9,085 nucleotides of DNA from the IMG/VR virus record IMGVR_UViG_2541047895_000013, positions 1 to 9,085 of that record. One strand, 5' to 3'. How positions within the stretch are numbered: position 1 is the stretch's first letter; each line of letters begins with the position of its first letter. Positions 1-3,000 of this stretch are shown here, piece by piece. This stretch comes from a virus. Taxonomy: Duplodnaviria > Heunggongvirae > Uroviricota > Caudoviricetes. Made by a program: the position numbers.

Positions 1-3000
1 GACCGTGAATGTCAGAAGGTGATTTGTGAACCGCTGGGCCGTAATTACCGCGTCAGTATGCCGCTTATAGCCTTTCGCTCCGGAAAAAACATGAAGCATC
101 TCGGAGGTGCAGCATGAGTATGGAGCTGATGGTTAAAGCGATGAAAATTCGAGTGGGTAATCCATTGCGAAAACTGGTTCTGATCAAGCTGGCTGATAAT
201 GCCAGCGATCAGGGGGAGTGCTGGCCCAGCTATCAGCATATTGCTGACCAGTGCGAGATTAGCAAACGTTCTGTGATGAATCATATTGCGGCCCTTTGTG
301 AGTCCGGGCTGGTAAAAAAAGTCACCCGGAAAGGTGAAAAAGGTAACTCAAGTAATATCTATCTCCTTCATCTGGATGGTGCAGGAGATTCACTAGGGGG
401 TAGTGCAAATAATTCACTATCTGGTGCAGCAAATTCACCAGGTAGTGCAGGAGTTGCACCAGGGGGTGGTGCAGGAGATTCACCCAGAACCAGTCACTCT
501 TTTGAACCAGTCAAAGAACCAGTCAATGAACCAATAGCTGTTGGTGAATCTGCTGATGAGTCTGTGCGAGTTCGTTCAAACCGACCGGAATACTCTCCGG
601 AGTTTGAACAGGCATGGCTGGCATATCCCAAACGTGCTGGTGGCAATTCAAAATCTGCAGCCTTCAAAGCCTGGAAAGCCCGTTTGAATGAGGGGGTAAC
701 CCCCGAAACCATGCTGGAAGGTGTGAAACGCTACGCGGGCTGGGTATCTGCGATGGGTAACAGCGGCACACAATTTGTGAAACAGGCTGTCACGTTCTTT
801 GGTCCGGATCGTCATTTCGAAGAATCCTGGGAAGTTCCTGCGGTATCTGCAGCCAGACGCGAGGACCCGTACTTCAAAGCCAGTTACGACAACGTGGACT
901 ACAGCCAGATCCCGGCAGGATTCAGGGGGTGATCATGAGTCTTTTGAATGAAGTTCAGAAATTCATTGAAGCCCATCCGGGGTGTACTTCCGGAGACATT
1001 GCGGATGCTTTTGCAGGTTACTCACGGCAGCGCGTTCTGCAGTCAGCAAGCAAGTTACGTCAGAGTGGGCGTGTGGCTCACCGTTGTGAAGGAGATACAC
1101 GCAGACATTTCCCGCGCCTGACTGAGAGAGCACAGGAGCCGGAACCACAACCAGTTCGTGAAACCAGACCTGTGCGCAATTTCTGTGTCGGCACTAACGA
1201 CCCGCAGGTGATTTTGTGCCTGACTCGCCAGGCGGAAGAACTGGAGTCCAGGGGCTTATACCGTCGAGCTGCAACGGTGTGGATGGAGGCATTCCGTGAA
1301 AGCCACTCCCAGCCAGAACGAAACAATTTTCTGGCGCATCGTGAGCGGTGCTTACGGAAAAGCAGCAAGCGCGCTGCATCGGGTGAAGAGTGGTATCTGT
1401 CAGGGAATTACGTGGGGGCTTAATGAGTAATAAATATTGCCAGGCGCTGGTGGAACTGCGGAACAAACCAGCCCATGAACTGAAGGAAGTGGGCGATCAG
1501 TGGCGCACGCCGGACAACATTTTCTGGGGAATTAACACCCTGTTTGGCCCGTTTGTTCTGGATCTGTTCACTGACGGTGATAACGCCAAATGTGCTGCGT
1601 ATTACACGGCGGAAGACAACGCGCTGGCGCATGACTGGTCAGAACGCCTTGCGGAGCTTAAAGGTGCTGCCTTTGGTAATCCTCCATACAGCCGCGCCAG
1701 TCAGCATGAGGGGCAATACATCACCGGCATGCGTTACATCATGAAACATGCCAGTGCCATGCGTGATAAGGGCGGGCGCTATGTTTTCCTGATCAAAGCT
1801 GCCACCAGCGAAGTGTGGTGGCCGGAAGATGCGGACCATATTGCTTTTATTCGCGGGCGTATTGGTTTTGAACTGCCAGCCTGGTTTATCCCGAAGGATG
1901 AGAAGCAGGTGCCGACAGGAGCTTTTTTCGCTGGTGCTATTGCTGTTTTTGACAAGACCTGGAAGGGACCGGCAATCAGCTACATCGGGCGCGATGAACT
2001 TGAGGCATGTGGTGAGGCGTTTCTGGCGCAGGTTCGCCAGCAGGCGGAAAAACTGGTCAGGGAGATGGCGGCATGACGACGTTAACTCAATGCCAGCAGC
2101 AGGTGCTGGATATGCTGATTTCTTATCAGAAAGAACGTGGCTTCCCGCCAACCAATCAGGAGGTGGCAACCATGCTGGGATACCGTTCGGTGAATGCAGC
2201 GGTGGAGCATCTTCGCGCACTGGAGAAAAAAGGCGTCATCACGATAAAGCGTGGTGTGGCCCGGGGGATCACGCTTCATACCGCGGTGAAGGACGACGAC
2301 AGCGAGGCGGTCGGGATTATCCGCTCACTGCTTGCCGGTGAGGAAAACGCAAGGCTGCGTGCAACTCACTGGTTACATGAGAGAGGCCTGAAAGTATGAA
2401 GCTGATCCTGCCTTTCCCGCCCAGCGTGAACACGTACTGGCGACACCCCAACAAAGGGGCATTTTCTGGTAAGAGCCTGATAAGCGCGGCGGGGCGAAAA
2501 TTTCAGAGCGTGGCGTGCGCAGCAATAGTTGAGCAGTTACGTCGTCTGCCAAAACCAACGTCGGCACCTGCTTCAGTGGAGATCGTGTTGTTTCCTCCGG
2601 ATAACCGGATCCGCGATCTGGACAACTATAACAAGGCGCTGTTTGACGCCCTGACCCACGCGGGTGTGTGGGAAGACGACAGACAGGTGAAAAGAATGCT
2701 GGTGGAGTGGGGACCGGTTATCCCGAAAGGGAAGGTCGAGATCACTATCAGTAAGTATGAGAAACCGGCGGGTGCAGCCGCCTGATTAAGAGGAGAAACG
2801 AAGTATGAATAATCTGATGGTTATTGATGGTATTGAAGTTCGTCGTGATGTTTATGGGCGTTACAGCCTGAACGATCTGCATCGCGCAGCAGTAGCATCT
2901 GGTGCAAATGCCAGAACCAAGGAGCCAGGAAAGTTTCTTTCCAGCCAACAAACTGTTGAACTTGTTCATGAATTGACCAACACCCAGAATTTGGGTGTTG

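Follow-up and report, generated by a model that had tools for sequence, protein, structure and literature searches.

One repressor that resembles the protein considered in this report is the cellular LexA of Escherichia coli, whose contacts with DNA are made by Ser39, Asn41, Ala42, Glu44, and Glu45 (PMC3091678). Among phage proteins, the closest characterized analogue is gp6 of GIL01, a tectivirus of Bacillus thuringiensis. It is the only truncated phage homologue of LexA to have been characterized; it does not bind the SOS box, and instead recognizes its own palindrome at -43.5 of the late promoter P3, which it activates (PMC6182141). A third point of reference is a gene of lambdoid prophages that is already known and annotated, both as PHROG 362 and, at NCBI, as a "LexA family transcriptional regulator". 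The gene described here is this same gene, with 97-100% identity and the same neighbors. The existing entries bear predicted names only, some of which are wrong ("SOS-response repressor and protease LexA", "RecA-mediated autopeptidases"), and neither a functional study nor experimental data on any member of the family was found in the literature searched. The gene is carried by phages SfV (orf42), SfII, SfIV, cdtI, and mEp460 (gp46), and by Stx2a/Stx2c phages. It is present in 2233 of 5426 complete E. coli genomes (41%), and 100% identical copies occur in E. coli O26, O145, and other genomes.

The copy analyzed here is found near the beginning of a 9,085-nucleotide stretch of DNA from a virus of the Caudoviricetes, the whole of which is referred to as the window. 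The gene and the parts of the protein it encodes are as follows.

2073 to 2399, plus strand: LexA-NTD-like gene encoding 108 amino acids, from the ATG start and with the stop codon included (ORF list, sequence, PF01726, PHROG 362).
2073 to 2279, plus strand: winged helix-turn-helix domain of the LexA type, residues 1-69 (AlphaFold2 secondary structure, Foldseek match to 3JSO, 51% identity to LexA).
2190 to 2228, plus strand: recognition helix VNAAVEHLRALEK, residues 40-52 (alignments, with the LexA contact residues taken from PMC3091678).
2280 to 2294, plus strand: flexible, partly acidic linker, residues 70-74 (pLDDT below 50 at residues 71-75).
2295 to 2381, plus strand: two-helix tail, residues 75-103, a candidate dimerization or partner-binding module (AlphaFold2 and a conserved pattern).

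This open reading frame is a bona fide LexA winged-helix head from which the S24 autocleavage domain is absent. Residues 1-65 match the entire PF01726 LexA_DNA_bind profile (positions 1-65 of 65, E=2.9e-19), with a score of 69 bits that lies above the gathering cutoff of 23.7. A phmmer search of the PDB returns the N-terminal domain of E. coli LexA (1lea, E=7e-16), to which the protein is 51% identical over residues 1-69 in the same numbering. The similarity of the first 70 or so residues to LexA, noticed in an earlier, sequence-only reading of this DNA, is thus significant in database searches. With E. coli LexA as the tblastn query, its residues 1-86 match 2073-2342 with 43% identity (E=1e-18), and its C-terminal domain gives zero matches across the window at E<=10. 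No Peptidase_S24 is found by Pfam; the protein stops at residue 108 and is devoid of the C-terminal S24 peptidase/dimerization domain and, with it, of the Ser119/Lys156 dyad of LexA. The lexA equivalog model TIGR00498 is matched only over profile positions 1-91 of 203, at 70.8 bits and below its cutoff of 110.95, while PHROG 362 ("transcriptional repressor") is matched over its full length (residues 1-108 against positions 1-106 of 106, E=1.1e-59). Without an S24 peptidase domain the protein cannot be inactivated by RecA-stimulated autocleavage, and on this point the first reading was correct.

The AlphaFold2 model of the 108-residue protein has a mean pLDDT of 82.9, and its head is composed of helices 6-22, 28-35, and 40-52 together with strands 56-58 and 66-68. 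Foldseek aligns this model with the LexA of 3JSO, a crystal structure of the repressor on DNA (rmsd 0.9 Å, 68 columns, 50% identity), so that structure prediction bears out the fold of the LexA N-terminal domain. The recognition motif NAA.EHL is also present, in the form NAAVEHL where E. coli LexA has NAAEEHL. With the cellular protein (1LEA, 1JHH, 3JSO), which folds in the same way over its first 69 residues, the head shares Ser39, located just before the recognition helix, as well as Asn41, Ala42, Glu45, His46, Lys53, Arg64, and Gly65. Besides having no S24 domain or catalytic Ser/Lys and scoring below the equivalog cutoff, it differs from cellular LexA in the replacement of Arg28 by Asn28 and of Glu44 by Val44, and in possessing its own helical tail. 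Four of the five listed base-contact residues are kept in the E. coli-type protein, Glu44 being the sole difference.

The tail is formed by helices 75-88 and 93-103, modeled with a pLDDT of 87-89. It had been described as a 38-residue end with neither an S24 peptidase nor a dimerization domain. Its length and the missing peptidase stand, but it is not a featureless stub: the pattern EAxxxIRALLAGExxARxRAxxWLxxRG is kept in relatives down to ~40% identity, and the DNA-binding core and the tail are conserved over a range of 38-97% identity among relatives. The supposed absence of a dimerization domain is unproven, as two conserved helices predicted in this position could well dimerize, and the tail is plausibly a dimerization module. 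Neither helix 75-88 nor helix 93-103 has a hydrophobic moment above those of shuffled sequences (p ~0.42 and ~0.48, respectively), a result that is uninformative; Pfam returns nothing meaningful for the tail segment by itself, and PADLOC gives a weak match to a CARF model at the winged-helix level only. In full-length Foldseek searches a similar layout, in which short C-terminal helices come after a winged helix, is shown by YtrA-type GntR regulators and by the BlaI/MecI-like Rv1846c; these matches are weak (E ~0.01-0.05, rmsd 9-10 Å) and without sequence kinship, and represent an architectural analogy only.

In contrast to the fold, some of the residues that read DNA are not those of LexA. 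Arg28 is found in 11 of 12 full-length LexA-like sequences in the alignment and Glu44 in 10 of the 12, whereas neither is found in any of the nine tailed-family representatives. Helix 3 falls into classes that follow the subfamilies (NAAVEHL, NAATDML, NAAAEHV, NGAFEHI, NAVLLHL, NTVFIHL, and NAAATHL), and over ~250 loci it is invariant inside each subfamily and discrete between them. This pattern would suit phage-specific operators better than a single fixed host motif and, with key DNA-reading residues having drifted, the protein probably controls phage-specific sites rather than host SOS boxes. Canonical SOS-box binding by the 108-residue protein appears doubtful from these alignments, although residual binding by the E. 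coli-type protein is quite possible, because only one of the five listed contact residues differs from LexA. The idea that the protein is an SOS-box binder therefore keeps a LexA head and four contacts in its favor, but is weakened by the loss of Arg28 and Glu44 throughout the tailed representatives and by the variability of helix 3.

Translational coupling links the gene to dam and rusA within the delayed-early (nin) operon, where in nearly all subfamilies it directly precedes (RusA)-DUF968-Q. The features of the operon are listed here.

2073 to 2076, plus strand: ATGA overlap of the dam stop and the LexA-like gene start (sequence; Dam gene 1390/1423-2076, PF05869).
2396 to 2399, plus strand: ATGA overlap of the LexA-like gene stop and the rusA start (sequence; rusA PF05866).
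2396 to 2785, plus strand: RusA (Pfam PF05866).
2805 to 3614, plus strand: KilA-N protein (Pfam).
3616 to 4611, plus strand: DUF968/HNH (Pfam).
4625 to 5377, plus strand: antiterminator Q (Pfam).
2396 to 5377, plus strand: conserved downstream block made up of RusA, KilA-N, DUF968/HNH, and Q (Pfam, synteny).

The same downstream gene order is observed in SfV, mEp460, and mEp390, and also in distant loci. In all 83 close loci rusA adjoins the LexA-like gene, and in six other subfamilies no more than 700 bp separate it from RusA in 26/27, 14/14, 31/38, 3/3, 3/3, and 1/1 loci, these counts being drawn from phylogenetically non-independent loci. RusA is absent from all 82 loci of the Klebsiella type. 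DUF968 followed by Q is present in the annotated or gene-called loci that were inspected one by one. A search of positions 1-2900 gave no promoter-like site ahead of the LexA-like gene, and an Rfam scan of the window gave zero matches. From its position in a delayed-early operon, the LexA-like protein should be made after induction, once the repressor has been lost, and not before. The proposal that it rewires the SOS response controlling the prophage's own induction is ill-fitting for a gene that overlaps dam and rusA by 4 bp each, shows no promoter-like site upstream in this interval, and belongs to such an operon. Taken as a whole, the sequence-only reading is partly supported. The prophage in the window is itself damaged, by an IS insertion in the lysozyme gene.

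The explanation we tentatively prefer, with somewhat less than even confidence, is that the gene encodes a delayed-early DNA-binding regulator of the phage, which descends from a proteobacterial LexA N-terminal domain, is dimerized by its tail, and is directed to a phage-specific operator. In this mechanism the tail would take over the dimerization role of the LexA C-terminal domain, and the dimer would then bind a palindromic operator. The latter would most likely be a phage-specific palindrome that is related to, but distinct from, CTGT-N8-ACAG, because Arg28 and Glu44 are lost family-wide and helix 3 varies by subfamily. Like GIL01 gp6, the regulator would target phage transcription in the course of lytic growth, and in the lysogen it would not be an uninducible repressor of SOS genes at large. 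A search of 12 loci for recurrent perfect 6+6 palindromes (gap 0-12) returned terminator hairpins only, and the inverted repeats of the window included nothing convincing as an operator.

The likeness to gp6 extends over several levels. Both are phage-encoded LexA winged helices without an S24 domain, both are PF01726 proteins, both are encoded among early genes, and host LexA, which gates the expression of gp6, probably does the same in one subfamily of the tailed family. The two can be aligned by hhalign (probability 96.5%, E=8e-10, 33% identity), whereas BLASTP yields no alignment. Gp6 has only 66 residues and no two-helix tail, in contrast to the 108 residues and tail of the protein described here. 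Because gp6 resembles LexA of Gram-positive bacteria, while the tailed family resembles that of the gamma/betaproteobacteria (~50% identity), and because the pair gives no BLASTP alignment, the two are probably independent captures. An operator and an activator role have been demonstrated for gp6, whereas the 108-residue protein is known here from its sequence and predicted structure.

A second explanation, which we regard as unlikely, is that the protein is a RecA-insensitive surrogate of LexA that acts on canonical SOS boxes (CTGT-N8-ACAG) and, being made after induction, re-closes SOS promoters when host LexA has been destroyed, or else that it competes with LexA. Among its targets would be host SOS genes, antirepressors or toxins that competitors keep under LexA control, and a box within a methyltransferase gene of the window. 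The 51% identity to the LexA N-terminal domain, the four contact residues, and the retention of Arg64-Gly65 in the wing are consistent with such a role, as is the occurrence of strong SOS boxes in the same phage modules, namely in SfV, in mEp460, and at the following site.

6669 to 6688: SOS box TACTGTAAAAATAAACAGTG, lying within codons 3-9 of the gene for an N6/N4 methyltransferase at 6661-7713 (conserved; also in phiNP).

SfV and mEp460 carry the same box as the window. An exact CTGT-N8-ACAG arises by chance in 27 of 200 shuffles of the window, but despite this rate the conservation of the box suggests that it is a real site, and probably one for host LexA. An identical box is found in the Citrobacter phage phiNP, where the 18 kb examined around it contain no LexA-like gene, and host LexA is therefore the simpler assignment. 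The box had been suggested as DNA on which to test binding of the LexA-like protein itself; its reality and good conservation are upheld, but its role as an operator of this protein is unsupported, given that phiNP has the one without the other. The LexA-like gene is also present in 27 of the 29 phage records that contain the methyltransferase box region, but box and gene belong to a single near-identical module, at a distance of ~4 kb, and their co-occurrence is therefore not independent evidence for the surrogate.

In the Klebsiella-type subfamily (P0168, P0138, P0242) a terminator, a promoter, and a strong SOS box precede the gene, and dinI usually accompanies it. This SOS-box-gated arrangement with DinI is seen in 71 of 74 loci; in L008 the promoter, TTGCAA-17-AATAAT, directly abuts the SOS box. 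In the preferred explanation host LexA would in this way gate the LexA-like protein, giving a relay from LexA to its phage relative. Co-transcription with dinI, which is SOS-damping, from an SOS-box promoter is what a surrogate might be expected to display, and if the protein bound the box the arrangement would produce lexA-like autoregulation. However, subfamilies that share this kind of SOS box upstream differ strongly in helix 3 (NAAAEHL, NAVLLHL, NTVFIHL) and cannot all read CTGT. The replacement of Arg28 and Glu44 in all tailed members and the failure of gp6 to bind the SOS box (PMC6182141) likewise argue against the surrogate. A more elaborate form of the idea, which we consider quite unlikely, is that of a RecA-proof stand-in for LexA, in which a tail-dimerized, non-cleavable head would re-close SOS boxes after LexA has been cleaved and, together with DinI in the Klebsiella-type operons, would constitute a self-limiting "SOS off-switch".

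There is a slim chance that the protein works mainly through protein contacts or on DNA structure, and not as a regulator specific to an operator, either as an accessory of the neighboring RusA/DUF968 recombination-nuclease genes or as a tail-mediated decoy for host LexA, RecA filaments, or RNA polymerase. Tight translational coupling to rusA in most subfamilies is compatible with this, although 82 Klebsiella-type loci have no RusA and many lambdoid phages possess RusA without a LexA-like gene. A tail that is conserved while no operator has been found could also speak for such a role, and HMMER aligns the tail segment AVGIIRSLLAGE with the LexA cleavage segment GLPLVGRVAAGE, such that LLAGE (Ala88-Gly89) is paired with VAAGE (Ala84-Gly85, the cleavage site) and the Ala-Gly pair is shared. 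This segment is, however, predicted to be the end of an alpha-helix and not the beta-loop of LexA, and no catalytic domain is present; mimicry of the cleavage site by the tail was rejected as a leading model because of the predicted helix. The conserved residues, moreover, correspond to the DNA-reading surface (Ser39, Asn41, Arg64, Gly65). Finally, that the reading frame is a functionless, decaying remnant of a captured lexA, as the loss of two thirds of LexA and the IS damage to this prophage might imply, is almost certainly wrong and is effectively refuted by conservation, since the full-length frame is kept at 38-100% identity with core and tail intact, is found in sequenced phage genomes including the named isolates SfV, mEp460, and cdtI, and still overlaps its neighbors at both its start and its stop.

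The family provides a number of experimental handles, in the discrete helix-3 classes, the fixed place before rusA-DUF968-Q, and the subfamily linked to an SOS box and DinI. If the protein were a stand-in for LexA, it would shut down the SOS functions of the host in lytic growth, along with rival prophages and toxins gated by LexA, and the gene would modulate the SOS-dependent induction of prophages and toxins on a wide scale, given its occurrence in Stx2a/Stx2c phages and in 41% of complete E. coli genomes. Binding to SOS boxes would have a direct effect on the SOS-dependent induction of Shiga-toxin phages. If, on the other hand, the head has been retargeted, it would be a further case, after GIL01 gp6, of a phage capturing and retargeting the head of the SOS repressor, and would extend this to the lambdoid phages of enterobacteria. 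Even an ordinary regulatory role would fill an annotation gap in medically relevant prophages, including the Shigella serotype-converting, cdt, and Stx2a/Stx2c phages.

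The protein encoded at 2073-2399 on the plus strand harbors the DNA-binding head of LexA and belongs to PF01726 and PHROG 362. The Pfam LexA_DNA_bind profile is fully covered by its residues 1-65 (E=2.9e-19), its top PDB sequence match is the N-terminal domain of E. coli LexA (E=7e-16), and it shares 51% identity with residues 1-69 of E. coli LexA, with identical numbering. The AlphaFold2 model (mean pLDDT 82.9) and LexA as crystallised with DNA superpose across 68 columns at 0.9 A. Pfam finds no S24 domain in the protein, the whole window yields no tblastn match to the C-terminal domain of LexA, and only the first 91 positions of the lexA equivalog model are matched, at 70.8 bits against a cutoff of 110.95. 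These results confirm that this is a LexA N-terminal domain without S24, as had been read from the sequence alone. The protein is not LexA: it has no peptidase domain, scores below the equivalog cutoff and is missing part of the contact-residue set.

The last 38 residues had been viewed as a stub, which is not borne out. The pattern EAxxxIRALLAGExxARxRAxxWLxxRG is still discernible in relatives of 38-47% identity, and the AlphaFold2 model places two confident helices here (75-88 and 93-103, pLDDT 87-89) after a low-confidence linker at 71-75. Such conservation indicates that the tail is functional. Dimerisation of LexA requires its C-terminal domain, and the weak full-length structural matches of the model include small repressors in which a winged helix is followed by two helices at the C-terminus; for these reasons the architecture suggests that the tail may be a dimerisation element. 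The hydrophobic moments of the two helices do not exceed those obtained with shuffled sequences.

E. coli LexA contacts DNA through Ser39, Asn41, Ala42, Glu44 and Glu45 of helix III (PMC3091678). The LexA-like protein retains four of these five residues, position 44 being Val, and has Asn at position 28 rather than Arg. An exhaustive HMMER search gave 4580 matches at E<=0.001, and among the best 150 representatives of these the full-length LexA-like proteins have Arg28 in 11/12 and Glu44 in 10/12 cases, whereas the tailed short relatives have each in 0/9. Within the same 150, Ser39, Arg64, Gly65 and Ile66 never vary in either group, and Asn41 occurs in 12/12 full-length and 9/10 tailed proteins. 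Since these residues are kept while Arg28 and Glu44 are lost, DNA binding looks preserved in the tailed family, but two positions that SOS-box readers hold fixed have been released. Helix 3, compared over 256 loci, sorts into discrete classes (NAAVEHL, NAATDML, NAAAEHV, NGAFEHI, NAVLLHL and NTVFIHL) that are uniform inside each subfamily and differ among subfamilies. The hosts of these subfamilies all have the same SOS box. A protein selected for that box should resemble LexA in helix 3, and the pattern resembles operator diversification of the immunity type.

The sequence-only reading was that the protein could occupy SOS boxes as an uninducible repressor, or could compete with host LexA. The LexA-like domain and the four retained contacts stand, and the E. 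coli-type protein, with one listed contact changed, could keep some affinity for the SOS box. Canonical SOS-box binding is nevertheless weakened, though not disproved, by the loss of Arg28 and Glu44 and by the divergence of the helix-3 classes, and with these comparisons against it we regard this explanation as rather unlikely. A variant in Klebsiella phage Kp4866-6 (locus L017, 4311-4787) carries a LexA domain with a different C-terminal region of about 90 residues in the same slot, directly 5' of rusA; its helix 3, NAAATHL, has neither LexA glutamate left. Some metagenomic proteins harbor two tandem LexA DNA-binding domains with divergent helix 3 and no S24 (P0132, P0133, P0149, P0152, P0153, P0155, P0156, P0159, P0186 and P0212), and may be single-chain pseudo-dimers.

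Its ORFs, with their Pfam and PHROG assignments, identify the window as the early-right and lysis portion of a lambdoid prophage.

Features of the window
114-932, replication protein
929-1423, PerC-like protein (164 aa, PerC family PF06069, YfdN-like), two genes upstream of the LexA-like gene
1390/1423-2076, phage Dam
2073-2399, plus strand, LexA-like ORF
2396-2785, RusA
2805-3614, KilA-N protein
3616-4611, DUF968/HNH
4625-5377, antiterminator Q
5658-6083, small ORF without annotation
6661-7713, N6/N4 methyltransferase
6669-6688, SOS box TACTGTAAAAATAAACAGTG, codons 3-9 of the methyltransferase gene
7715-7996, holin
7996-8457, lysozyme gene, shortened by the IS3-family transposase
8432-9085, minus strand, IS3-family transposase (rve domain), extending past the window end

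PerC/Pch homologues of EHEC prophages are known virulence regulators. The lysozyme ORF ends early, its profile match stopping at position 115/125, and the prophage copy is probably lysis-defective.

An exact CTGT-N8-ACAG in 9 kb would not be an unusual chance event (0.14 expected; 27/200 shuffles contain one or more). The box at 6669-6688 is identical in SfV, mEp460 and a further compared locus, L011, and also in Citrobacter phage phiNP, although a 300-bp methyltransferase query matches there at just 86% identity; no LexA-like gene lies within 18 kb in phiNP. Variants at other loci (CTGTAAATTTAAACAG, CTGTAAAAATACCCAG and CTGTAAAAATATCCAG) alter amino acids and keep SOS-box compatibility. We read the box as a probable host-LexA site that is part of the methyltransferase module and gives no evidence on the LexA-like protein. 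On the minus strand, by eye, it lies between the two elements of a weak promoter-like pair (TCAACA ... TATTTT, spacer 17 bp) that would point leftwards into the highly conserved 6540-6660. A minus-strand ORF at 6609..6445 (54 aa) has a motif in common with a 70-aa ORF in L011, and an SOS-induced antisense RNA or small protein left of the box is possible.

The LexA-like ORF begins at an ATG whose ATGA overlaps the dam stop, and its own stop shares a second ATGA with the start of rusA. In counts over phylogenetically non-independent loci, rusA is immediately downstream in all 83 close loci having enough downstream sequence, and within 700 bp in 26/27, 14/14, 31/38, 3/3, 3/3 and 1/1 loci of other subfamilies. 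As the 82 Klebsiella-type loci are without rusA, the link is positional and not obligatory; that the protein serves as a protein partner or recombination accessory we consider improbable. DUF968 and Q are downstream in the loci individually examined for gene content, and the upstream neighbor varies between Dam, C5 methylase and replication protein. The constant feature is a delayed-early operon slot immediately ahead of DUF968-Q. Conservation excludes a dead remnant, to which we give practically no chance. No promoter-like site was found 5' of the gene in the window, so it should be expressed only once the phage repressor is lost. The proposal that the phage tunes the SOS signal behind its own induction fits poorly with this position and the missing upstream promoter.

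In three lineages (named after the relatives P0168, P0138 and P0242), a terminator, a sigma-70-like promoter and a strong SOS box all precede the LexA-like gene. The Klebsiella prophage order is SOS box, dinI, PHROG 1813 ORF, LexA-like gene, PHROG 1212 ORF, DUF968 and Q, and the SOS box-dinI-LexA-like arrangement is found in 71/74 loci. Spacer sequences of the box differ among Klebsiella-type loci, with conserved CTGT/ACAG halves.

SOS-associated features at compared phage and prophage loci
L008 5531-5559, promoter TTGCAA-17-AATAAT, the box beginning at 5560
L014 3293-5891, L099-L177, L008 5531-8413 and L011 5561-8195, SOS-gated operon, with optional rusA between the PHROG 1212 ORF and DUF968
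L001 (mEp460) 31970-31989 and L003 836-855, repressor-gene SOS boxes

The sequences indicate that expression of the LexA-like protein in these SOS-linked phages is gated by host LexA, and in this order the late-gene antiterminator, Q, lies behind a promoter under host-LexA control. Because their helix-3 sequences are strongly dissimilar to one another, it is unlikely that all three lineages bind their own upstream box. Strong SOS boxes (TACTGTTTTTACATACAGTA and TACTGTTTATAAATACAGTA) also lie inside the coding sequence of a cI-like S24 repressor in several of the compared phages, about 3-4.5 kb 5' of the LexA-like gene in many close loci.

Such gating recalls the Bacillus thuringiensis tectivirus GIL01, whose late promoter is under LexA repression and is later switched on by gp6, a truncated LexA homologue (PMC6182141). 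In using a LexA head, the protein is nearest in concept to gp6; both are PF01726 proteins whose profiles are related (hhalign probability 96.5%). The gp6 protein has 66 residues, is tailless and resembles Gram-positive LexA, which suggests two separate captures.

We favor a LexA-derived, RecA-insensitive and probably dimeric winged-helix regulator that would be produced during lytic development, would bind a phage-specific palindrome related to the SOS box yet distinct from it, and would probably target the phage's own early-right/late region. The analysis shows the fold, the lack of a peptidase, the conservation of the tail, the missing Arg28 and Glu44, the separate helix-3 classes and where the gene sits in its operon; we infer that the protein dimerises, what kind of operator it reads and where it acts. 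The main weakness is that no operator emerged from inverted repeats in the window or from palindromes repeated among 12 loci.

The gene corresponds to SfV orf42 and mEp460 gp46, and is also carried by SfII, SfIV, cdtI, Ayreon and many Stx2a and Stx2c phages. Stand-alone LexA-domain proteins are frequent elsewhere too, in tectiviruses, mycobacteriophage Wildcat and uncultured phages. The protein aligns with PHROG 362 ('transcriptional repressor') over its full length, and E. coli copies are annotated 'LexA family transcriptional regulator'. Public names such as 'SOS-response repressor and protease LexA' and 'RecA-mediated autopeptidases' are wrong for a 108-residue protein without a peptidase domain. 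The adjoining Dam methyltransferase is named 'phosphoadenosine phosphosulfate reductase' in public records, misannotations having propagated across the module. A full-text literature search found no functional study of this PHROG 362-type family; the protein is an uncharacterised phage-encoded truncated LexA homologue, whose gene is already annotated and for which precedent exists. The gene is common and medically adjacent: of 5426 complete E. coli genomes, 2223 have a match at >=80% coverage (2233 with any match), with as many as four copies in one genome.
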